Shown: positions 5,900 to 56,034 of the stretch, one piece after another
Numbering within the stretch: the stretch's first letter is position 1
How the letters are laid out: each line of letters begins with the position of its first letter
Source of the DNA: Candidatus Enterousia sp.
GTDB taxonomy: Bacteria; Pseudomonadota; Alphaproteobacteria; Rs-D84
Direction of reading: 5' to 3'
DNA length: 64,000 bases
NCBI GenBank assembly: GCA_045612805.1
Contig: JAZKZR010000008.1
Span: 6,276-70,275 of the forward strand
Notes under the pieces: generated by a model
The model's input: only the letters and a program-made list of their open reading frames with translations
Told to the model about the DNA's origin: nothing
Databases searched by the model: none
Made by a program: the position numbers and the translations under genes

Positions 5900-7021
5900 T
5901 CAATGAAACACATAGCAATCAATTCCCGCGGACGATGCGCGATTTTTTAAGTTTTGGGCCGCGGATTCGGAAAGTCCCGTCACACGCACACGATAAAGTC
6001 CCGCGCCGTTCGGTTCCAAATGCGCGGTCGCACCGGTCGCATTTTTAACACGCGCAATCATCGCGTTTGCGGAATCCGTACTGCCGAACGCACCAAATTG
6101 AACACCAACGCCGCCGGTCGCATAGGTCGGTGTGGTCACCGGCGCAACCCTTGGTGCATCGTCCGCGTATTTTTGGACGATGGGCGATGTCACGGGCGCG
6201 GGTTCAACGGTATAGTTTGCCGCCGCACCGATACCATATGTTTCAAAACCACGATTCAACAGCCGCGTTGATACCGCCGCACGAACATCTTTGTTTTCCG
6301 CCCCCAATACAACCGACAGCAAGTGATGCCCCCCACGCGCCGCCGTTGCAACCAACGAATACTTTGATTTATCCGTATAGCCCGTTTTCATACCATCGCA
6401 CCCCGGATATGTTTCCAACAATCGATTTCCGTTCGTGTATGTTTTTCCGTTATAGGTCCACGTTTTTATTCCAAAATATTTCCAATACTGTGGGAAATGC
6501 TTATAAACCGCCATGGACAGCAACGCAATATCACGCGCGGTGGATAAATGGTCGTCGTCCGGCAAACCGGATGAATTTTCAAAATTTGTGTGTGACAGGC
6601 CGATTTCGCGCGCGACACGCGTCATCAATGATGCAAATGTTCCCTCTTTGCCACCCTTAAGGTTTTCGGCCAAAACCCGTGCGACATCGTTCGCGCTGTA
6701 CACCGCAAGTGCGATTATCGCATCTTCGACACGAATCTTGGAACCGGCGGCAAGCCCCAGTTTCACAGACGGTGCGGCGGCGGCACTTTGCGACACAATC
6801 AAATAATCATCCAAATGCAAACGCCCGTGTTCCAACGCATCAAATGTCAAATACAATGTCATAATCTTGGTCAAACTTGCCGGATAATTTGCATCGTTCG
6901 CATGTTCGGAAAAAATCACGCGTCCCGTGTCCATATCCGCAACCAGTGCCGCACGATAATCCGCCGCAAACGCGCCACCACAAAGTAAAACCGCAATAAT
7001 AAAAGATAAAATTTTTCTCAT
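5900..7021 (-). CDS. D-alanyl-D-alanine carboxypeptidase (PBP5/6 class) with a C-terminal SPOR domain
   Basis: Signal peptide MRKILSFIIAVLLCGGAFA, active-site SLTK, and a C-terminal FGAFGS...YRVRVTG SPOR-like module. An alternative GTG start exists at 7051. Confidence 0.8.
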   Translation of the reverse strand: MRKILSFIIAVLLCGGAFAADYRAALVADMDTGRVIFSEHANDANYPASLTKIMTLYLTFDALEHGRLHLDDYLIVSQSAAAAPSVKLGLAAGSKIRVEDAIIALAVYSANDVARVLAENLKGGKEGTFASLMTRVAREIGLSHTNFENSSGLPDDDHLSTARDIALLSMAVYKHFPQYWKYFGIKTWTYNGKTYTNGNRLLETYPGCDGMKTGYTDKSKYSLVATAARGGHHLLSVVLGAENKDVRAAVSTRLLNRGFETYGIGAAANYTVEPAPVTSPIVQKYADDAPRVAPVTTPTYATGGVGVQFGAFGSTDSANAMIARVKNATGATAHLEPNGAGLYRVRVTGLSESAAQNLKNRASSAGIDCYVFH

Positions 7022-23947: not shown

Positions 23948-24625
23948 ATGGCAAGGGTAATTTGTTTTGATATTGAAACGACCGGATTCGAATACCTGCG
24001 CGGCGACCGGTGCATCGAAATCGGCGCGGTGGAAATTGTGGATGGAAAAATCACCGATAAAACTTTTCACGAATACATAAATCCCGAAGGTAAAATTATT
24101 CCGCCGGAAACATATATGGTTCATAAAATTTCAAACGCGTTTTTGGATGACAAACCGAAAATGTCCGTTGTTGCACCAAAGTTTTTGGAATTTGTTGGTG
24201 ATTCAACAATTGTTGCACATAACGGATTGGACTTTGACTTTCCGTTTGTGAATCACGAATTGGAAATGTTGCACTTGCCGCCGATTCCGCGTTCGCAAAT
24301 GGCGGACACATTGGTCATCGCGCGCAATCGTGTGTTTGGTCCAAAAAGTTATACACTGGACGCACTTGCGAAATGGTTTGGAATATCACTGACCGCGCGT
24401 GCTGATGCACACGGGGCGTTGATTGACTCTGAAATTTTGGCCAAGGTTTATTTGGAACTTGAAAACACCGCGCCCGCGCCGGAAATTTCGGAAATTGTCG
24501 CGAAACAGCACGAGGCATTTTTGAAACACCCAAAAATTGGTGCGAATTTTCCATACCGTCAATTCCCGGTGTCAGATGCCGAACAAAAAATCCACGACGA
24601 ATTCATGGCAAAGTTGGGGGAATAA
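23948..24625 (+). CDS. dnaQ: DNA polymerase III epsilon subunit (3'-5' exonuclease)
   Basis: Exo motifs FDIETTG, VAHNGLDFDFPF and HGALIDSEIL. Confidence 0.88.
   Translation: MARVICFDIETTGFEYLRGDRCIEIGAVEIVDGKITDKTFHEYINPEGKIIPPETYMVHKISNAFLDDKPKMSVVAPKFLEFVGDSTIVAHNGLDFDFPFVNHELEMLHLPPIPRSQMADTLVIARNRVFGPKSYTLDALAKWFGISLTARADAHGALIDSEILAKVYLELENTAPAPEISEIVAKQHEAFLKHPKIGANFPYRQFPVSDAEQKIHDEFMAKLGE
24585..24625 (+). repeat. direct repeat copy 1 (native 3' end of dnaQ: aaaaaatccacgacgaattcatggcaaagttgggggaataa)
   Basis: Matched by two further near-identical copies at 25261 and 26241. Confidence 0.8.
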
Positions 24626-24629
24626 AATG

Positions 24630-24658
24630 TTGTCAAACACCACAATTTATAATAAAAT
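24630..24658 (+). promoter_or_regulatory. promoter of the cassette-1 lipoprotein gene (TTGTCA-17-TAAAAT)
   Basis: Hexamers with a 17 bp spacer immediately after the dnaQ stop. Confidence 0.5.
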
Positions 24659-24684
24659 TATAATGCTATAAAAAAGGAGAAAAA

Positions 24685-25056
24685 ATGAAACCGCTATATG
24701 TTTTATCAATTTTATTGGGGTTGTGTGCTTGTGACAAAATAAACTTTCACGAAACAGATATAGAATGTTTGAATGTAACTTGTGTAGAGGAAGAATGCGA
24801 CAGTGTTTGGGACAAGTATAAGTCGCTTGATGTAGATTCCGAAAAAGCGGTGTTAAGAACAGATGACCGAACAATAGTGTTTAAACTATATACACAGGAT
24901 GCGACGGAAGAAACACCGGCGGTTTATGCAGATTTTCAAATCTATAAAAATGAAAACGATGAACAACCAATGTTCCTGCATTTTGTAGACAATGATACCT
25001 ATTCATTGGGAACAGATTTAAATCATTGGTCACAATGTCGTAAAGCGCGCAAATAA
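24685..25056 (+). CDS. hypothetical lipoprotein (123 aa)
   Basis: Lipobox LLGLCAC after the signal peptide; SD aaaggag. Confidence 0.6.
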   Translation: MKPLYVLSILLGLCACDKINFHETDIECLNVTCVEEECDSVWDKYKSLDVDSEKAVLRTDDRTIVFKLYTQDATEETPAVYADFQIYKNENDEQPMFLHFVDNDTYSLGTDLNHWSQCRKARK

Positions 25057-25086
25057 TTACTATTGGTAAATACATTAAAGAAGAAT

Positions 25087-25185
25087 TGTCATTGCGGCGT
25101 AGGCCGCAATAGGGCTAGGCATTTGTGACGAATATTTCGTAATAGTAAAATGTTTTTTGTCATTCTGAACTTGTTTCAGAACCCT
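25087..25185. repeat. two tandem GTCATT-hairpin elements
   Basis: gtcattgcggc-gtag-gccgcaat and gtcattctgaa-cttgtt-tcagaa. These belong to the same hairpin family seen inside the composite repeats. Confidence 0.55.
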
Positions 25186-25260
25186 ATGGCGGACCAGAAT
25201 CACCCAAAAAATGCTTTGCATTTTTTGGGGCCCGATGCCCGCCATGACAAAAAAACAACA

Positions 25261-25300
25261 AAAAACCCACGACGAATTCATGGCAAAGTTGGGGGAATAA
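25261..25300 (+). repeat. direct repeat copy 2 of the dnaQ 3' terminal 40-mer
   Basis: aaaaacccacgacgaattcatggcaaagttgggggaataa (1 mismatch to copy 1). Confidence 0.8.
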
Positions 25301-25301
25301 T

Positions 25302-26201
25302 TTATCCCATTACGGTCATCATTACACCAATACTAATCATGATAAAACATAATATTTTTTTTATCATGATTTGGCGTGATATATCTTCGTGAAAACGTTT
25401 GCCAAATAATTTTGCAAGAATGATTCCATATACGGCAACAAAAATTGGTTGAACTGATTGAATTCCCGAATCCACAATAATCGGTATCAATGCCAGTGCG
25501 AACACAAGGCTTAATGAAGCCAACCTGTCAAAACATTCCATCAATACAAACATGCCGAATTTTTTACGATATGCGCCGAAACTTTTTATGATATCTTGAC
25601 GAACGGGGCGAATAAATAACATTGTAAATTGTCCAATGAAAGATGTCACCATAACCCAAAATGCCACCGATACCCAGTTAGTATTTTCTAACAAGACCTT
25701 GTAAAAACTCCCTTCAAACGACAACATTATACTGGCCAAGCACATTAACCAAAAACCAGAATTTATCTTGATACGATTTTCATGGGTTAGATTCAAAAAC
25801 ACAGAAAACAATATTATTATACCAAAACCTATATATTGAATGGGATGTAAAGTTTCGCCAACTATTAAAAAAGCCCATAACGGAACAAAAACTTTTTCCA
25901 TTTGAAATAATGCGGCCACCACAGATGTATCAAGTTTATTCAATGCAGCAAAATATGGAAATTGATATCCAATCTGTATGATTGATAACAGACCAACGAA
26001 TAACCATGCTTCCAACGGCAATGAATGAATTTGGCCAAACAGTGGCAAACACAAAATCCCCAATATATTTGTCAAATTCATGTAAAAAATGGTTGTTGGC
26101 ACCCGCTTAAAAACACTACCCAATACATAGGAATCAAATATATTGGATACAGCCCACATCATAGGCCCAATAAAAGCAACCAAAATTCCAAACAAATTCA
26201 T
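25302..26201 (-). CDS. EamA/DMT-superfamily transporter (10 TM)
   Basis: 299 aa, two internally repeated 5-TM halves typical of the drug/metabolite transporter family. Confidence 0.7.
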   Translation of the reverse strand: MNLFGILVAFIGPMMWAVSNIFDSYVLGSVFKRVPTTIFYMNLTNILGILCLPLFGQIHSLPLEAWLFVGLLSIIQIGYQFPYFAALNKLDTSVVAALFQMEKVFVPLWAFLIVGETLHPIQYIGFGIIILFSVFLNLTHENRIKINSGFWLMCLASIMLSFEGSFYKVLLENTNWVSVAFWVMVTSFIGQFTMLFIRPVRQDIIKSFGAYRKKFGMFVLMECFDRLASLSLVFALALIPIIVDSGIQSVQPIFVAVYGIILAKLFGKRFHEDISRQIMIKKILCFIMISIGVMMTVMG

Positions 26202-26240
26202 AACATGGGAATTATATCATAAAACGGTTGGAGTGTAACA

Positions 26241-26280
26241 AAAAATCCACGACGAATTCATGGCAAAATTGGGGGAATAA
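26241..26280 (+). repeat. direct repeat copy 3 of the dnaQ 3' terminal 40-mer
   Basis: aaaaatccacgacgaattcatggcaaaattgggggaataa (1 mismatch). Confidence 0.8.
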
Positions 26281-26295
26281 AGGAATTAAAGTGTT

Positions 26296-27534
26296 TTAAC
26301 GGGCTTTGATGCTAAATTGACCAGTTAACATATTGATACACACATAATCGCCTTTTTTTATTTTTTCAAACTCAGCACGGCGGCCCCAAGTTTCCAAAAC
26401 TGTAAAATCAAGATTTTCACGCAACATATTACCATGATGCCCATATAGGCCATCGAATGGGGAATTTGACCAATCAAAATCAAACTTGAATTGCACCCCA
26501 ACAGAATTTTTGGTAAAAACATATACAGATTCACCAGATTTCCAAATATTTATATCATTATATTCTTGTGTTGGTACGGGCCTTATACTATCTATGAAAC
26601 CGACATAACCTTCTATAATTGGTTTGTCCAATGAAAATACGGATTTAGTGCTTGCATCTATATCGCGTCCATAAAATTCAGGCAAACAATATGGACGCTG
26701 TTGCACTATATTTATTTTATTATCTTTTGACACAACAAATTCCATATCCACAGGATAACCTAAATCTGGTTCCAATTCTGAACACAAAGCAGAAATTAAA
26801 AAATGATTTCGGTATGTTTCACGGTCCTGTGCGTAAACCCTTTGTGGTGAACCAGTAAAAGAGTTAGGATAAAACATCATATTATATTCTAAATTATCGA
26901 TACTGGACAAATTAAACCTGATCATCTTGTGGTTTTTATCAGAAATGGGTTTGGCTGTGGCAAATCTATGAAAATTAGAAAAATTTTTATCAGATAACAA
27001 TTTATCTGCAAAATCATTTTGAACATAATTCATTACGATAAAAGGTGCACCCAAAAATGTTTCAGAATACACAACGCCGGCCATTTGCGACGTTGGAACC
27101 ATTGATTGTAATATAACACCCATTTTGGCATTTGGCACATTTGCCGCAGATGCATAAACAGTATTTAGTGCCTTGGCCATATGTTCGCGTGTTCTTACAT
27201 TTAAAACACTTTCAAATTGACCCGAAAAAGTTTTCCCTTTTTTATCTTCTATATCCGCAGAAGAACGCACAGCGATATTGCCACCCAATCTGTCCATATA
27301 AAGCATCGCCGAATCTATTAAATCTTCTTGGATATACCCTTGTTTTTTATAATCATTAAACCTTGATACCGGAATCACAAATGTGTCTGGGACAATGAAA
27401 CCCGTTTTGTATTGCGCGTTATACTTTTCAATCAGTGTTTTTAATTGATAAAGCCCTGCAAATTTGCCGCCACCAATACTACTTGCGGTATGGGCGTTTA
27501 CATTTTCTAACGAAATGATTGTGTTATCTGTCAT
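26296..27534 (-). CDS. stand-alone PEP-utilising-enzyme N-terminal (PPDK_N, ATP-grasp-like) domain protein
   Basis: IGGGKFAGLYQL nucleotide-binding loop, RSSADIEDKKGKTFSGQFESVLNV, and DMEFVVSKDNKINIVQQRP match the ATP-binding domain of PEP synthase / PPDK / rifampicin phosphotransferase. No His swivel domain or PEP/pyruvate domain is present. Confidence 0.6.
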   Translation of the reverse strand: MTDNTIISLENVNAHTASSIGGGKFAGLYQLKTLIEKYNAQYKTGFIVPDTFVIPVSRFNDYKKQGYIQEDLIDSAMLYMDRLGGNIAVRSSADIEDKKGKTFSGQFESVLNVRTREHMAKALNTVYASAANVPNAKMGVILQSMVPTSQMAGVVYSETFLGAPFIVMNYVQNDFADKLLSDKNFSNFHRFATAKPISDKNHKMIRFNLSSIDNLEYNMMFYPNSFTGSPQRVYAQDRETYRNHFLISALCSELEPDLGYPVDMEFVVSKDNKINIVQQRPYCLPEFYGRDIDASTKSVFSLDKPIIEGYVGFIDSIRPVPTQEYNDINIWKSGESVYVFTKNSVGVQFKFDFDWSNSPFDGLYGHHGNMLRENLDFTVLETWGRRAEFEKIKKGDYVCINMLTGQFSIKAR

Positions 27535-27585
27535 TTTATATTTTCGGCACCAAACTTATTAAACATCGCCCGAATGGGCGGTGGA

Positions 27586-29970
27586 TTATAATTGTGCTTT
27601 TATTTCTTGGACTTCGTAACATTCAACGCGGTCGCCTTCTTTGATATCGTTATACTTATCAAAACTCATACCGAATTCGACACCGCCGGAAACCTCTTTA
27701 ACCTCGTTCTTTTCGCGGCGCAGTTCGCCGATTTTTCCATCGTACACCACAACATTGTCGCGCAGCAATCGCACAAACGCGTCTTTTTTAATCACGCCTT
27801 CGGTCATACGGCAACCCGCAACACGAATACCCTTGCCGACCGTGAACAGTGCGATAACATCGGCATAGCCAATAAAGTTTTCTTTCTTTTCCGGCGCAAG
27901 TTTTCCGGACAAAATTTCTTTGATTTCATCGGTGATACGATACACGACACTGTGATAACGAATATCAACATTTGCCGCGCGCGCCATATCACGCACCGCC
28001 GCATCCGCACGAACATTAAATGCGATTATGACCGCGCCCGACGCGGACGCAAGGCGCACATCGCCTTCGGTAATTTGACCAACCCCGGACGACAGAATTT
28101 CAACCGACGCCTTGTCCGTTTTAATATCACGCAACATGTCGTTTATCGCCTCTACACTACCCTGGACATCGGCACGCAAAACAATTGGCAAAGTCAATTT
28201 TTTATCGCCCGTTTGTTTTGCAAACAGTTCTTCGAGTGACGAACGTTTCATCGCGTTTGCACGGTCACGCGCGCGCTGTATGCGCCATGCCGCAACTTCA
28301 CGTGTTTGCGCTTCGGTTTCCATAACGTTCAACATATCGCCCGCCAATGGCACCGCATCAAGCCCCAATACCATAACGGGCTGTGCCGGTTTGACCATTT
28401 TCACGCGTTCGCCATTTGACATAACCAGGCCCCTTACGCGACCAAATGTTTCGCCGACAACAAACACGTCACCAATCTTTAATGTTCCTTCACGAATTAT
28501 AACCGTTGCAACCGCGCCCAGGCCCCGTTCCATTTTCGCCTCTACCACCGTGGCGACCGCCGGCATATCCGGGTCCGCGCGCAGGTCCATCATTTCGGCT
28601 TGCAATAAAATTGCGTCTTCCAATTTATCAAGCCCGATTTTTTGTTTTGCGGAAATTTCAACGCATTGAACGTCGCCGCCCATTTCTTCGACCTGGACTT
28701 CCTGTTGCAGCAAATCCGTTTTGACCTTTTGCGGGTTGGCTTCGGGTAAATCGATTTTGTTTATTGCGACAATAAACGGAACTTTGGCCGCACGAATATG
28801 ATTTATGGCCTCTATCGTTTGTGGCATAATCGAATCATTTGCCGCAACGACCAAGACCACAATATCCGCCATTTGCGCACCACGCGCACGCATCGCGGTA
28901 AATGTTTCATGTCCCGGCGTATCAAGGAAAGTTATGACCGCACCGGATTTTGTTTTAACCTCGTACGAAGAAATGTGTTGGGTTATGCCGCCCGCTTCGC
29001 CCGCAACAACGTTTGCATTGCGGAACGCATCAAGCAATGATGTTTTACCATGGTCAACATGTCCGACAACCGTCACAATCGGCGCGCGCGGTTTAAGGTT
29101 TTCCGGATTCGGCGCACGTTCCAACAAATCGGCGTATGGTTTAACCTCTACACGTTTTACGGTTGCACCAAATTCGCCGGCGATAATTTCCGCCGTGTCC
29201 GCATCAATAGATTGATTTTGGGAAACCATCATTCCCATTTCCATCAGTTTTTTGATAACGTTGCCAACCTTTTCCGCCATCGCCGCCGCCAAATCTTTGA
29301 CGACAATTGTGTCACCGATAACGACTTCGTGTGCGACCTTTTGCGGTGCATTGAACATCGCACGCGCCTTTTCGCGGAAACGTTTAAGTGACGCTTCGGA
29401 CCGGCGGCGATTTGCCCCACGCAGGCCGATTTCATCGTCATCATCGTCATTACCAATAACAATATCACGCAACGATATTTTCCCACCGCGTGCAAAGTCA
29501 CGCTTGCCACCAGATTTTTGATTCCGGCGCGTGGGCATGTTATCGTCATCATCTGATTTGTTTTGCCGATGTGCGGGATTTTTCTGGCCAAAATTGCGTG
29601 GAACGGCGACCGGTTCCGGATCTTCTTCGGTATTTTGCATCGCATTTTCACGCGCAGCAAGTTGCTCTTTGACCTGTTCATATTCGCGGGTTTCGCGGGC
29701 AATTTCTGCCTCACGCGCGGCACGGGCCGCGGCTTCTTCCGCTTCGCGTTGTTTGCGTTCTTCTTCGCGGGCACGTGCGGCCTCTAAGACCGCGCGCAAT
29801 TTTTCATCCGCCGGATTATTCTTTGTTGCGGTTGGCGCGACCGGTTCTTCGCGCAATTCGTTACTGCCCGGTGCAACAACACGGCGACGGCGTTCCACGA
29901 AAACAGAATCGCCCTTTTTGCTTTGCACCGCCCCCAAAGTCACAGATTTTCCAAGTGTCAGTGTCGCCAT
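27586..29970 (-). CDS. infB: translation initiation factor IF-2
   Basis: GTPase [20 protein letters not shown] and NKID motifs, with a charged, repetitive N-terminal region. Confidence 0.95.
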
Positions 29971-50685: not shown

Positions 50686-50727
50686 TCTTTTTTCCCTTTT
50701 TGTTTTGTGATATAATTACAGGTGAGT

Positions 50728-53301
50728 ATGAGGGTTTTTACACTTGGATTTTTAATTGCGCTGTATGCGCCGACCACGGTTTGCGTGGCGGCGGTGCCAT
50801 CGCGTGTTATTCCCGGAACAAATGCGACAATGGGTGGCGACAACGCGACCGCGACCGAAGAAAGGTCGGTTGCACCGGTTCGCACGGTTTCTGCAACGCG
50901 GACAACAAATGAAAGTCCCGACCGTGGTGCAATCACACGCAATATCGTTCGCACAATTCCAACAGATACAACACGCGAAGTCCAAACGACGACGCGTTCG
51001 GCGGGGCGCGCGGTTTCCGTGACCCGGTCACAAACGAATAAAGATTCAACGCGCAACAATCTGGATGCCGCGGTCCACAATGTTGGTCGGTCACAGCGCA
51101 CCGAATCCGCAAGTATAAACGCAAATCCGGCGGTGCGGCGTATGGGATTGACGTTGCGCCCATCCACCGCAGAGGTTGGCGGTCGCGCGATATTGGAATC
51201 CGGCGCCCAGACCGGGTCAAATATATCATCGGAAATTGGCAACCTTAGCCCGCGTATCGCGACGGTGCAAACACGTAAAGAAGAAAAATTAGACCCCGCA
51301 TCAATCGCCCAGGCCAAAGAACAATTGGAACAAAAGGCGGCATTGAATAAATCTTGCCAAGACCAATATAACGATTGCATGGACCAATTCTGTGCGGTGA
51401 TTGATGCGAATCAAAAGCGGTGTTCATGTTCGGCGAATTTATCAAAATATGTCGCGGTCGAAGAAGCCGTCAAAGAAGCAAATACTAAACTAAATGAAAT
51501 CGCGCAAAATATACGCTATGTGGGGCTTTCCGCCGATGAAATTACCGCGATTATGTCCGCGACCGAGGCCGAAGAGGCCATGACCGATATCACCGATACA
51601 ACGGAAAATCGCATGTTGTTATCAAGAATCGAACAAATGATAAAAGACCCAAAAACAACAAGTTCTTCGTCGTATGCGGTTGATTCATATGGATTGCTTG
51701 ACATAGATTTAGATTTTTCGTCCGAAGATTTGTCGGATATGTTTAGTTTGGATTTTCTTTCTGGGGCAAATAATGGTTTTTCAAACCTGCGCGGGGGCGA
51801 ATTATACAAGGCCGCAAAGCGTCGCTGTGAAACCGTGATAAAACAATGTCGCGATGTTGGCGCAACAAGTGACCAAATTACCGGCAATTATGATTTGGCG
51901 ATTGATAAAGATTGTATCGCGTATGAACAAGGTTTAACCAAGATGAATGAAACATTGGTATCCAATGTGCGCAGTGCAACGCGTATGCTGCAAAAGGCGC
52001 GACTTGCGGTGTTGCAAAATCAAAATACCTATGACGCGATTGGTTGTATTGGCGCACTTGAAAATTGCATGAAAGACGATATGGTGTGTGGCGACAACTA
52101 TTTCAAATGTATCGACCCGACCAAGAAGTATATCGATGAAAACGGTAATGTTGTTTTGGGGCAAAATATAAACAATATCCAAAAATTTATGGCAAATTAC
52201 AGCAACGCCGAAATCAACAGCACAAAATTGCAACAGGCATACGCCATGACATCGTTGGATGACCCAACCTGTTCAGGAAATAACGCAAATGACGGGCGTT
52301 GCGTGATAAAATACCTGCTAAGCAAAATCGGAACCCAGGCGGACGCGACCGCCGAGGGGCTTTGCCGACCGGTTTTGGATAAATGTCGCGCATATACATA
52401 TGATGACCGTGGCGCATATAAATCATATAACGATATTGTTGTGAACTATGTCCAACGTGCGATGGTGAATATAAGTGCCGCCCAGCATCAAATTGTGGCG
52501 GATTATGCGTCAACATGCCTAAACGATATTGCGACATGTTATAATAACCAGGTTTCACAGATAAATTCTTGGTCGGCGACGGCGGCGGCATCCAGTGTAT
52601 ATAACATTATGCGTGGCGCATGCCGTAATGTCGCCCTTACATGTGGATATGCGGTGTTTTCGGCGGACAGCACCAGTTGCCCCGACACCAACCCAACTAA
52701 GTGCATAGAAAGCATTTCAGAGATATTCTATCAATCGTTGCTCTGTCCGGATAATTCTTTCTATACCACTACACGTGGTTCCATTGCCGCAAATAATCAG
52801 TGGGGGTATGTAAACCCAATGTGTATTTGTAATGATGGGTATGTGGTGTTTTCTGGCCAATGCCTGCCCATATGTCAAGAAGGCGGCTATAACCGCAACG
52901 GTGTTTGCGATTCTAATTTGGCATGCCCAGATCATTCTTATAGCGTATTAAACAACACGGGTAATGTTAATGGTGGCAAATGTCAATGCGATGATTCGTA
53001 TGTCGCGTTTAACAATACTTGTGTCCAATGTCCCGAACATTCACAACCGGTGACATCTGGTGGTGACGCGTATAATGGTGCATGTATGTGCGACGCAGAC
53101 GATGAATATGTTTATATAACACGCAGTAAAACATGCAGAAAATGCCCGCAAAATTCCGACTATGTTCCAGCAACGGCCAATTCAAAGAGTAAATGCCAAT
53201 GCACAACAGAGGGGTATTCGTGGGATAGAATGTTTAATGTTTGTATGGATATGACACCGTCTATTGGTGTCGTTACACCCGGTGGCAATGCTAATGATTA
53301 G
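50728..53301 (+). CDS. large secreted Cys-rich protein, paralog B (857 aa) with C-terminal CxCxDxYV..C..CP repeat modules
   Basis: Signal peptide MRVFTLGFLIALYAPTTVCVAA. KSCQDQYNDCMDQFCAVIDANQKRCSC aligns with the paralog A block. The C-terminus carries 4 tandem ~30 aa Cys modules (CICNDGYVVFSGQCLPIC, CQCDDSYVAFNNTCVQCP, CMCDADDEYVYITRSKTCRKCP, CQCTTEGYSW). An extended -10 TGaTATAAT lies just upstream. Confidence 0.7.
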   Translation: MRVFTLGFLIALYAPTTVCVAAVPSRVIPGTNATMGGDNATATEERSVAPVRTVSATRTTNESPDRGAITRNIVRTIPTDTTREVQTTTRSAGRAVSVTRSQTNKDSTRNNLDAAVHNVGRSQRTESASINANPAVRRMGLTLRPSTAEVGGRAILESGAQTGSNISSEIGNLSPRIATVQTRKEEKLDPASIAQAKEQLEQKAALNKSCQDQYNDCMDQFCAVIDANQKRCSCSANLSKYVAVEEAVKEANTKLNEIAQNIRYVGLSADEITAIMSATEAEEAMTDITDTTENRMLLSRIEQMIKDPKTTSSSSYAVDSYGLLDIDLDFSSEDLSDMFSLDFLSGANNGFSNLRGGELYKAAKRRCETVIKQCRDVGATSDQITGNYDLAIDKDCIAYEQGLTKMNETLVSNVRSATRMLQKARLAVLQNQNTYDAIGCIGALENCMKDDMVCGDNYFKCIDPTKKYIDENGNVVLGQNINNIQKFMANYSNAEINSTKLQQAYAMTSLDDPTCSGNNANDGRCVIKYLLSKIGTQADATAEGLCRPVLDKCRAYTYDDRGAYKSYNDIVVNYVQRAMVNISAAQHQIVADYASTCLNDIATCYNNQVSQINSWSATAAASSVYNIMRGACRNVALTCGYAVFSADSTSCPDTNPTKCIESISEIFYQSLLCPDNSFYTTTRGSIAANNQWGYVNPMCICNDGYVVFSGQCLPICQEGGYNRNGVCDSNLACPDHSYSVLNNTGNVNGGKCQCDDSYVAFNNTCVQCPEHSQPVTSGGDAYNGACMCDADDEYVYITRSKTCRKCPQNSDYVPATANSKSKCQCTTEGYSWDRMFNVCMDMTPSIGVVTPGGNAND

Positions 53302-53376: not shown

Positions 53377-56034
53377 CTACTTCCGTGGGAATTTGACCGC
53401 CGCCTGGGCCGCGGCTAAGCGTGCAATTGGCACACGGAACGGACTGCACGAAACAGAATTGAATCCGCATTTGTGGAAGAATTCAATCGATTCCGGATCA
53501 CCACCGTGTTCGCCGCACACGCCAAGGTGGATTTTGTCACCCTTGGTCGCGCGTGCCTTTTGCACCGCGTCTTTTATCAGAAGCCCTACGCCCAATTGGT
53601 CAACCGATGCAAATGGGTCGGCAACATAGATTCCGCGCGCACGGTATTCATCCAAAATCTTGCCCGTATCATCACGCGACATTCCAAGTGTTGTTTGTGT
53701 CAAATCGTTTGTGCCAAATTCAAAGAATTCGCAACTTTCCGCGATTTCGTTCGCCAAAACCGCCGCACGCGGCAATTCAATCATAGAACCAACCGTGTAT
53801 TCGACGCTTTCGCCCGTTTCCGCAAACAGTGATTTCGCCGTCGCATCAATTACGGATTTAACAATATCGACTTCTTTTTTCGAACCCACAAGTGGCACTT
53901 CGATTTCAGGATGCACCGAAACGCCCGCCCGTTTGCATTCCAATGCCGCCGACAATATCGCGCGTGTTTGCATTTCGCAAATTTCCGGATATGTAATCGC
54001 AAGACGGCATCCACGATGCCCAAGCATCGGGTTTTGTTCATGCAACGCATCCGCACGCCCCTTTACGAATTCCACCGGTTTACCAATGTGTGCGGCAAGT
54101 TCCGCAATATCCGCATCGGTATGTGGCAAGAATTCATGTAATGGCGGGTCAATCAAACGAATGGTGACCGGCAGGCCGTCCATAATCTTGAACAATTCGA
54201 TAAAGTCCGCCTTTTGATACGGCAACAGTTTTGCCAACGCCGCACGGCGACCGTCTTCGTCTTCGGCCAAAATCATTTCACGCATATCTTGGATACGCGC
54301 CGGATCAAAGAACATGTGTTCCGTCCGCGCAAGTCCGATACCTTCGGCGCCAAAATCGCGCGCCTGTTTTGCGTCCTTGGGCGTTTCGGCGTTTGCCTTG
54401 ACGGTAAGTGTTTTGATTTCATCAACCCATTGCATAAGTGTTCCGAAATTACCCGTCAATTCCACAGAAACCGTTGGGACCGCGCCTTCGATAATTTGCC
54501 CTTTGGCCCCGTCAATGGAAACCCAATCGCCTTCGTGGATAACCGCCCCGGATGTCGTCTTCATCGTTTTGGATTCATAATCGATTTTGATATCCGGGCT
54601 GCCCGAAACACATGGTGTTCCCATACCGCGCGCAACCACCGCCGCGTGTGATGTCATACCACCACGTGCGGTAATCACACCTTGGGCCGCGTTCATACCC
54701 GCGATATCTTCGGGCGATGTTTCAACGCGGATAAGCATAACTTTTTTACCCGCGGCCGCCCATTTTTCGGCATCTTCGGCATTGAACACCGCCTGACCCA
54801 CCGCGGCACCCGGGGACGCAGGTAACCCGTTCGCAATAACCTTGCGTTCCGCCTTGGGGTCCAACATCGGGTGCAACAAGTGATTCAATTGGTCGGCACC
54901 AACGCGCAAAATTGCCTCTTCTTTGGTAAGTAAACCTTCGTTCACCATTTCAACCGCCATGCGAACCGCCGCCGCCGCCGTGCGTTTACCATTACGGCAT
55001 TGCAACATCCAAAGTTTCCCATGTTCGATGGTGAATTCCATATCTTGCATATCTTTATAGTGTTTTTCCAATTTTTCACGCACATCGCAAAGTTCACGAT
55101 AAACATTTGGCATGGCTTCTTCCAATGACACGCGGCCGGAATCATCCTTGCTCATCGGTTGCGGGGTACGAATACCGGCAACAACGTCTTCGCCTTGGGC
55201 GTTAATCAGGTATTCACCATAGTATTTGTTTTCGCCGGTTGCAGGGTCACGGCTGAAACACACACCGGTCGCACTGTCATCGCCGGAATTTCCAAAGACC
55301 ATCGCTTGGACATTGACGGCGGTGCCCCAATCGCCCGGGATATTATTTAATTTGCGGTATGTGATGGCCTTTTTGCTCATCCATGAACCGAACACCGCGC
55401 CGATACCAAGTTTTAACTGTTCCCATGGGTCCTGGGGGAAAACCTTGCCAATTTTAACACCGATTTCTTTGAATTGTTCCACCAATTGTTTCAAATCGTC
55501 GGCGGTCAGTTCGGTGTCAACCTTGTATCCCTTTTCTTCCTTCATGCGTTCCAAAGTGTGTTCGAACAAATCGATATCCGCGCCCAACACAACGTCACTA
55601 AACATCATGATAAAGCGGCGATATGAATCGTATGCAAATCTTTCGTTACCAGAGATTTTTGCCAACGCCCGCACCGTTTCATCATTCAAACCCAAATTCA
55701 AAACCGTATCCATCATCCCCGGCATAGAAACGCGCGCACCCGAACGCACCGACACCAAAAGTGGATTTTCCATATCGGCGAACTTTTTGCCCATAATCTT
55801 TTCAATATGCGCGATACCGGCGCGAACCTGGTCCATCAAATCCGCCGGATATGTTTGGTTGTTTTCATAGTAATATGTACAAACCTCTGTCGTGACGGTA
55901 AAGCCCGCCGGAACCGGCAACCCAACCAAATTCATTTCCGCCAAATTTGCACCCTTGCCCCCAAGCAAGTTACGCATATCGGCGCGACCTTCGGCATGAC
56001 CATCGCCAAATGTATAAACCCATTTATTACTCAT
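53377..56034 (-). CDS. ppdK: pyruvate, phosphate dikinase
   Basis: 885 aa from MSNKWVYTF (SD aaggaga). GGKGANLAEM ATP-grasp loop, phospho-His region GGMTSHAAVVARGMG, and a C-terminal PEP/pyruvate domain. Confidence 0.95.
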   Translation of the reverse strand: MSNKWVYTFGDGHAEGRADMRNLLGGKGANLAEMNLVGLPVPAGFTVTTEVCTYYYENNQTYPADLMDQVRAGIAHIEKIMGKKFADMENPLLVSVRSGARVSMPGMMDTVLNLGLNDETVRALAKISGNERFAYDSYRRFIMMFSDVVLGADIDLFEHTLERMKEEKGYKVDTELTADDLKQLVEQFKEIGVKIGKVFPQDPWEQLKLGIGAVFGSWMSKKAITYRKLNNIPGDWGTAVNVQAMVFGNSGDDSATGVCFSRDPATGENKYYGEYLINAQGEDVVAGIRTPQPMSKDDSGRVSLEEAMPNVYRELCDVREKLEKHYKDMQDMEFTIEHGKLWMLQCRNGKRTAAAAVRMAVEMVNEGLLTKEEAILRVGADQLNHLLHPMLDPKAERKVIANGLPASPGAAVGQAVFNAEDAEKWAAAGKKVMLIRVETSPEDIAGMNAAQGVITARGGMTSHAAVVARGMGTPCVSGSPDIKIDYESKTMKTTSGAVIHEGDWVSIDGAKGQIIEGAVPTVSVELTGNFGTLMQWVDEIKTLTVKANAETPKDAKQARDFGAEGIGLARTEHMFFDPARIQDMREMILAEDEDGRRAALAKLLPYQKADFIELFKIMDGLPVTIRLIDPPLHEFLPHTDADIAELAAHIGKPVEFVKGRADALHEQNPMLGHRGCRLAITYPEICEMQTRAILSAALECKRAGVSVHPEIEVPLVGSKKEVDIVKSVIDATAKSLFAETGESVEYTVGSMIELPRAAVLANEIAESCEFFEFGTNDLTQTTLGMSRDDTGKILDEYRARGIYVADPFASVDQLGVGLLIKDAVQKARATKGDKIHLGVCGEHGGDPESIEFFHKCGFNSVSCSPFRVPIARLAAAQAAVKFPRK

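Follow-up and report, generated by a model that had tools for sequence, protein, structure and literature searches.

A two-domain ATP-grasp protein of gut Alphaproteobacteria as a predicted minimal dikinase core

What can be the role of a gene that seems to encode the nucleotide-binding part of a dikinase and little else? This question is raised by a protein of 412 amino acids (aa) encoded in Candidatus Enterousia sp. (Alphaproteobacteria, Rs-D84), within positions 6,276 to 70,275 of contig JAZKZR010000008.1 (assembly GCA_045612805.1). This entire stretch of 64,000 nt is called the window here, and all positions refer to it unless another locus is named. An initial annotation had assigned the product to the superfamily of phosphoenolpyruvate (PEP) synthase, PPDK and rifampicin phosphotransferase (Rph). 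According to it, the protein lacks both a phospho-histidine (phospho-His) swivel domain and a substrate domain, and could be either a degraded phosphotransferase, for instance the remnant of an antibiotic kinase, or a novel partner-dependent enzyme. From comparison with its relatives we conclude that the 412-aa protein is probably an intact, minimal 'dikinase core', predicted to be a working phosphoryl donor and not a broken enzyme.

Domain architecture of the 412-aa protein

The gene and the parts of its product are located as follows.

26296..27534, minus strand: complete gene of the 412-aa two-domain protein (open reading frame list, 28 homologue clusters, ratio of nonsynonymous to synonymous substitution rates, dN/dS)
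26686..27534, minus strand: PPDK_N-type ATP-grasp nucleotide-binding domain, residues 1-283 (Pfam, profile and fold matches)
27463-27465, minus strand: codon of K24
26299..26685, minus strand: putative diverged PEP-utilizers-type phospho-His (swivel) domain, residues 284-412
26437..26439, minus strand: codon of H366, the predicted phosphoryl-carrying His

The open reading frame (ORF) begins with ATG, has 412 translated codons and ends with a stop codon at 26296-26298. A check for frameshifts, as would mark a pseudogene fragment, found none in the window copy, nor any internal stop. The three ATP-grasp motifs quoted in the initial annotation are all present in the translation, and its remark on an unusual, AT-rich composition is borne out as well. 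The gene is compositionally foreign, with a GC content of 0.354 and a GC content at third codon positions (GC3) of 0.284, the lowest GC3 among the 50 ORFs of the window (mean 0.439, standard deviation 0.065).

The superfamily assignment is confirmed by Pfam, which finds PPDK_N (PF01326) on residues 86-281 (E 7.5e-20; 71.9 bits, the cut-off being 27). The start of the domain, missed by this match, is supplied by the GGGK motif at residues 21-24. In the family alignment little or no variation is seen at K24, R90, S109, D263/E265 and Q279-R280-P281, and S91-S92 are conserved too. Among these, K24, R90, S109 and E265 are the counterparts of Lys22, Arg117, Thr136 and Glu297 of Rph, which hold the phosphates of ATP and the Mg ion in place and whose part in ATP handling was shown by mutagenesis (PMC4844700). 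When the family profile was compared with the PDB, PEP synthase (2ols, 1.6e-10) and Rph (5fbs/5hv6, 4e-8 to 6e-9) were matched over residues 68-286, followed by HpeI (9goj_A, 3.5e-4), with PPDK far behind PEP synthase and Rph at 0.48. The AlphaFold2 (AF2) model of the whole protein has a mean predicted local distance difference test score (pLDDT) of 88.4 and a predicted template modelling score (pTM) of 0.86, and its best Foldseek matches in the PDB are Rph-Lm (5hv1, E 8e-15) and PPDK. Among the NCBIfam models PRK05849, PEP synthase, PigC/RedH and Rph match partially and far below threshold, all within the N-terminal domain; the first of these is presumably tied to the glutamine kinase Cj1418 of Campylobacter, a tie which we do not use as evidence. 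Judged by these comparisons, the ATP-grasp domain is complete and its ATP site intact.

The statement that a swivel domain is lacking does not hold. That residues 284-412 constitute a diverged swivel domain is well supported by profiles and motif, and weakly by fold comparison. With hhalign, the C-terminal domain aligned to a profile of 65 canonical swivel domains with 78.9% probability, E 1.6e-5 and a score of 34.2, where 60 column-shuffled controls scored 10.9 +/- 2.7 (maximum 22.6) and the reversed alignment 14.3. With 45 family members the values were 93.1%, E 3.1e-7 and 42.9 over 96 columns, the His being in register, and the shuffled controls gave 9.4 +/- 1.5 (maximum 13.2, probability at most 0.6%). 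The homology is significant only against the 65-sequence canonical profile and not against one PPDK swivel: with the single swivel sequence of the window PPDK the last hairpin alone was aligned, at 14% probability. Furthermore, the full-length family hidden Markov model (HMM; positions 46-412) aligns in a single stretch to residues 30-401 of the 796-aa protein P0094, in which Pfam detects PPDK_N at 49-289 and PF00391 at 323-392. Here the family His is paired with the His of GGMVSHAAIVSRE, R-E with R-E, and IKEGDY with kDGDYILVNG, the terminal GD hairpin. Thus, of the domain check by Pfam that had been proposed, the part concerning PPDK_N stood, but Pfam is blind to the second domain, which is seen by profile-profile comparison.

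Around H366 the family has the signature Y364-x-H366-x-G368-N369-x-x-R372-E373. H366, G368 and N369 are invariant in 45 out of 45 members, R372 is found in 43 and E373 in 42 of them, and the C-terminal invariant block also takes in G309, F389 and G395-D396. The His is followed by Arg at +6 and Glu at +7, a spacing also seen in the swivel motif of canonical domains, S-H-A-A-I-x-A-R-E (PMC12167813), and in the profile alignments H366 stands in register with the His of the canonical S-H-A-A-I-x-x-R-E. In the AF2 model helix 366-373 starts with H366, an arrangement shared with known phospho-His domains; Foldseek found no match below E 0.25 in the PDB for the isolated C-terminal domain model. Taken for itself, the architecture of an ATP-grasp plus a phospho-His domain appears highly probable to us.

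With PPDK_N and a predicted phospho-His swivel domain the protein has two of the parts that mark the superfamily of PEP-utilising dikinases, and the third, an acceptor-binding domain (PEP-utilizers_C TIM barrel or rifampin-binding), is absent. The protein ends 46 residues past H366, directly after the second domain, and neither Pfam nor NCBIfam has a match outside PPDK_N. Nearly all family members measure 410-515 aa, and in two longer ones the extra length is only a degenerate half-copy of this module. The initial annotation was therefore right about the substrate or acceptor domain, and the true gap in the 412-aa protein is this domain, not the swivel domain. Its suggestion of a partner-dependent enzyme survives in modified form: it is the acceptor site which is missing from the chain.

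Distribution and evolution of the family

A search of 5.8 billion clustered proteins yielded 28 clusters with 36-98% identity. Nearly all have 408-470 aa and cover 95-100% of the 412-aa query; coverage falls to 76-81% in four clusters of shorter proteins (335-362 aa). When 1.84 billion representatives were searched exhaustively with a profile, 32 clusters at 50% identity were obtained with E < 1e-30, which match over the full length with the exception of a few short fragments and have about 410-480 aa. Beyond the family the score drops sharply, and from about E 1e-22 generic PPDK_N proteins follow that match the N-terminal domain only. In GTDB species genomes about 21 full-length loci were found, all in uncultured gut or rumen Alphaproteobacteria. 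Among the hosts of these metagenome-assembled genomes (MAGs) are cattle, yak, buffalo, horse, roe deer and human, and Candidatus Enterousia is the name given to one of the MAGs. This group belongs to the order Rs-D84, for which genomes of less than about 1 Mb without an accumulation of pseudogenes and a presumed partner-dependent lifestyle have been described (PMC12306168). Database annotation calls the family members 'hypothetical' or 'PEP/pyruvate-binding domain protein' only.

Compared with seven orthologues, dN/dS is 0.16-0.24 in the N-terminal as well as in the C-terminal half, even where dS exceeds 1. Thus, both domains are under purifying selection. A different situation exists in four related loci with 80-82% protein identity (L011, L012, L013 and L017), where an in-frame TAA stands at about codon 36, which is GAA in the window. 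This allele leaves a product of 335-338 aa without the GGGK motif of the ATP site (L011 7727-8000). The same TAA allele is present in three independent assemblies; therefore, it is a real lineage-specific event, either inactivation or re-initiation.

The two longer members are P0029 (786 aa) and P0030 (716 aa; L025 5962-8112), in which the full module is followed by the degenerate half-copy, corresponding to positions ~184-412, with the catalytic His motif lost. The contig carrying P0030, JAZUMA010000029.1, also encodes a normal paralogue of 437 aa (L026 / P0024). In another relative, L010, the DNA of the gene's 5' part and of the junction to infB (L010 330-700, window 27240-27620) is virtually identical to that of the window, whereas overall the two proteins share only 86% identity, which suggests a recombination mosaic within the gene.

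Known systems, predicted mechanism and alternatives

As had been noted before, a full ppdK is encoded elsewhere in the window.

53377-56034, minus strand: resident canonical three-domain PPDK, 885 aa (PPDK_N, PEP-utilizers, PEP-utilizers_C)

It carries the motif GGMTSHAAVVARGMG and is the only other swivel-domain ORF within the 64 kb. BLASTP of the 412-aa protein against it was not significant (E 0.79). Therefore, the gene does not represent a shortened ppdK, and we rejected the idea of a truncated duplicate.

Among characterised enzymes, PEP synthase (PpsA; 2ols, 8a8e) gives the best ATP-grasp profile match and has a homologous swivel domain, and the His-mediated dikinase chemistry of PEP synthase and PPDK would be shared by the 412-aa protein. 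It differs from both by the missing PEP-utilizers_C TIM barrel, a short linker and another His motif, and scores only 35.2 with TIGR01418 (cut-off 739.75) and 36.6 with NF005057 (598). In Rph (5hv1, 5fbs) a rifampin-binding domain of about 430 residues lies between ATP-grasp and swivel domain and is wholly absent here; the scores are 24.9 bits against 999 for NF041857 and 14.8 against 1700 for NF000283. Since the acceptor domain is absent and the scores are far below the curated cut-offs, the protein belongs neither to the PEP synthases nor to PPDK or Rph. The two-component small-molecule dikinases HpeHI, CreHI and phenylphosphate synthase PpsAB are relevant because here an ATP-grasp module of the superfamily works with an acceptor-binding module on a separate polypeptide; their swivel His resides on the substrate-binding subunit (PMC12167813). 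The 412-aa protein, in contrast, carries a predicted His domain of its own and has, in 28 distinct loci, no recurring partner gene beyond its closest relatives, and thus does not classify as an ATP-grasp subunit of the HpeI/PpsB/CreI kind.

When the literature was searched, under these domain names, for a family that combines PPDK_N with PEP-utilizers in two domains, none was found. The closest known architectural match and, by analogy, the best functional model is VadK (Rv1127c) of Mycobacterium tuberculosis, a truncated PPDK with ATP-grasp and His domain that has lost the PEP domain. VadK autophosphorylates His422 with Mg-ATP, interacts with methylcitrate-cycle enzymes and regulates enzymes in trans; its gene lies beside methylcitrate-cycle genes, and the PEP/pyruvate domain is not encoded separately there either (PMC13400623). 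Both proteins would combine an ATP-grasp with a phospho-His domain in the absence of a PEP/pyruvate domain. The domains of VadK, though, are canonical and PPDK-type, whereas the 412-aa protein is nearest to the ATP-grasp domains of PEP synthase and Rph, has a swivel domain beyond Pfam detection with the His motif Y-x-H-x-G-N, and lacks conserved neighbours. Descent from PPDK is supported neither by the BLASTP nor by the PDB profile result given above. It looks as if the 412-aa family arose independently of VadK, in the Alphaproteobacteria. VadK is the sole characterised protein found with this two-domain architecture; therefore, a role as trans-acting phospho-donor or regulator is favoured.

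By analogy to VadK and to the dikinase reactions established for PEP synthase, PPDK and Rph (PMC4844700), the ATP-grasp domain (1-283) would bind Mg-ATP, and H366 in the swivel domain (284-412), joined to it by a short linker, would attack the beta-phosphate of ATP. This would release AMP and leave a pyrophosphoryl-His that resolves to phospho-His, from which the phosphoryl group would be handed to an acceptor not encoded by the 412-aa protein itself. The likeliest acceptor would be a partner protein, in which case the 412-aa protein would be a phospho-donor with a regulatory role, as VadK is; alternatively, the phosphoryl group might go to a small molecule held by a different protein or at the surface between the domains. 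Taken as a whole, the statement that the protein phosphorylates itself at H366 and donates to an acceptor in trans is the one towards which we lean.

Several observations weigh against it. In a Pfam scan of 20 isolated C-terminal domains of the family PF00391 was not detected, with noise alone returned, and the HMM of this domain alone, run with HMMER against canonical proteins, reached E ~0.07 and covered only the terminal hairpin. The canonical GG-x-T/S-S/C-H-A-A-I is replaced by Y-x-H-x-G-N, with no GG and no Thr or Ser before the His. Genome context names no operon partner, acceptor or pathway: across 28 distinct loci no neighbouring gene family recurs except among the closest relatives, which alone share the arrangement upstream with infB. 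Finally, the TAA truncation in L011, L012, L013 and L017 means that the gene is dispensable there.

Another reading has a C-terminal domain that is no phosphoryl carrier at all, for instance a beta-barrel or OB-like module, the protein then being an ATP-grasp ligase or an ATP-binding regulator. Neither Pfam nor Foldseek recognises the isolated domain, as such a module would predict, but the profile-profile homology lies far above the shuffled controls, the register of His, Arg-Glu and GD hairpin equals that of canonical domains, and the His at the helix N-terminus is absolutely invariant; we judge this explanation improbable. About equally improbable seems the ATP-grasp subunit of a split dikinase, in which the C-terminal domain would be a mere docking or structural module and the partner would be encoded elsewhere. 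Stand-alone ATP-grasp subunits of ~40 kDa such as HpeI do exist (PMC12167813), and Pfam detects PPDK_N alone. Yet these systems keep the His on the separate component, and here the invariant His-x-G-N-x-x-R-E lies in the protein's own domain; the lack of a recurrent neighbour in 28 distinct loci beyond the closest relatives, and of a further swivel ORF in the window apart from PPDK, also speaks against a split enzyme.

Poorest is the case for decay, with the protein as the non-functional rest of a phosphotransferase that once had three domains, either a PEP synthase or an antibiotic kinase of the Rph type, and lost the one for the substrate; we hold this to be most improbable and largely refuted. 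The low GC, the site beside an insertion hotspot, the nonsense mutation in one related lineage and the degenerate half-copies fused in P0029 and P0030 would suit it. Against this stand an architecture of 410-480 aa kept throughout the ~30 full-length clusters and ~21 species-level genomes, dN/dS of ~0.2, catalytic residues that are all invariant, including the His, the low scores for Rph and PEP synthase, and the retention of the gene in genomes below 1 Mb, in which pseudogenes do not accumulate (PMC12306168). For the window copy the pseudogene reading is rejected on the intact ORF and dN/dS, although a related lineage does carry the nonsense codon. Of greater weight is a self-sufficient small-molecule kinase, possible if rather doubtful, which would bind a metabolite, a nucleotide or a xenobiotic or antibiotic itself, without a partner, and phosphorylate it in the interdomain cleft or in the emptied nucleotide site in ping-pong fashion. 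Most characterised relatives (PEP synthase, Rph, PigC/RedH, HpeHI) act on small molecules, the gene stands alone, and the family-specific residues K195, Y127, Y156 and N369, invariant and outside the canonical ATP motifs, could be read in this way. Also the frequent position in variable regions, near genes for GNAT acetyltransferases, a MatE exporter and an HD hydrolase, is compatible with detoxification. However, nothing in the 412-aa protein corresponds to the dedicated extra domain or subunit with which every characterised member of the superfamily holds such an acceptor, neither a pocket nor a ligand can be deduced, and the neighbours differ in each genus. We keep to the self-phosphorylating donor acting in trans as the reading that we favour.

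The locus next to dnaQ

In the window the gene lies between infB and a cassette array at dnaQ, for which these features are given.

27564..27583, no strand assigned: GC-rich terminator-like hairpin in the interval from the infB stop to the start of the 412-aa gene (consensus scan)
24582-24626, 25257-25301, 26237-26281: copies of a 45-nt dnaQ-3'-end repeat (array 24582-26281)
26237..26281, no strand assigned: repeat copy 3, 14 nt past the stop codon of the 412-aa gene, boundary of the cassette array
25302..26201, minus strand: EamA/DMT transporter gene, mobile cassette (Pfam EamA)

The hairpin ahead of the gene is also kept in L010 and L011, and the consensus scan shows a weak promoter-like site at 27562-27533. 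In other genera the gene is placed elsewhere, often co-directionally behind housekeeping operons or in variable regions that contain genes for GNATs, a MatE exporter, a resolvase and toxin-antitoxin systems. In L003 (7378-9275) it directly follows rplO, as here (27534-27586) it follows nusA-infB. Normally secY-adk follow rplO, and rbfA-truB follow nusA-infB. The position behind highly expressed housekeeping operons may give the gene read-through expression.

On its other side the insertion hotspot pointed out initially is real. A 45-nt sequence from the 3' end of dnaQ (...QKIHDEFMAKLGE*) occurs in three direct copies with 96-100% identity, each of which reads on the minus strand as the hairpin CCATGAATTCGTCGTGG followed by a T-run; by these features copy 3 is likely the terminator of the 412-aa gene. 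The repeats flank two tiny cassettes devoid of an integrase, a gene for a 123-aa lipoprotein and the EamA gene. L014, with a 98% identical protein, has the order infB - gene - dnaQ - uvrD and a single repeat copy, that is, an empty site. In L015 the order is gene - repeat - lipoprotein - repeat - EamA - dnaQ, in the window gene - repeat - EamA - repeat - truncated lipoprotein - dnaQ. The arrangement looks like the duplication of an att site with insertion and shuffling of cassettes, and no recombinase was identified for it. The 412-aa gene itself is outside the array and resident at this locus in its species group. EamA was considered as an operon or functional partner and rejected, being a mobile cassette that is missing in L014 and differently placed in L015 and L010. 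An origin from phages or a role in anti-phage defence was rejected as well: PADLOC gave no hits, and PHROGs gave two matches at E ~0.07-0.1 in one relative.

Two neighbouring genes are mentioned for completeness. The putative 123-aa lipoprotein (24685-25056, plus strand; MKPLYVLSILLGLCAC...) corresponds to a 253-267-aa protein of L015 and L010 from which an internal part has been deleted, and has no Pfam family. Adjoining ppdK, at 50722-53301 on the plus strand, lies the gene of a Cys-rich, probably secreted protein of 859 aa with repeated C-x-C motifs.

What does the 412-aa protein mean for its bearers? It is best described as a lineage-restricted minimal dikinase core with its own His motif, Y-x-H-x-G-N-x-x-R-E, not as something categorically new, and nothing in the proposed chemistry is mechanistically unprecedented. 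Once its conserved catalytic His is recognised, what looked like a fragment becomes an enzyme that can be tested. That the gene is kept under purifying selection in symbiont-like gut bacteria which have discarded most of their metabolism suggests a real role. For annotation the lesson is that proteins with PPDK_N as their only detected domain should be checked by profile-profile methods for cryptic swivel domains. More speculatively, and in our view unlikely as a specific claim, Rs-D84 might possess in it a PPDK-independent, ATP-driven phospho-His donor that starts a phosphorelay or regulates metabolic enzymes in trans. If true, this would be a second, convergent case of the VadK type or an ATP-dependent stand-in for Enzyme I of the phosphotransferase system (PTS), and 'domain-stripped' dikinases would form a recurrent class of non-canonical histidine kinases. 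The family would add a second, apparently independent example of such a domain-stripped dikinase, from poorly known gut symbionts with reduced genomes, and together with the description of VadK in 2026 it suggests that the loss of the acceptor domain may be a recurrent route to ATP-driven phospho-His donors.

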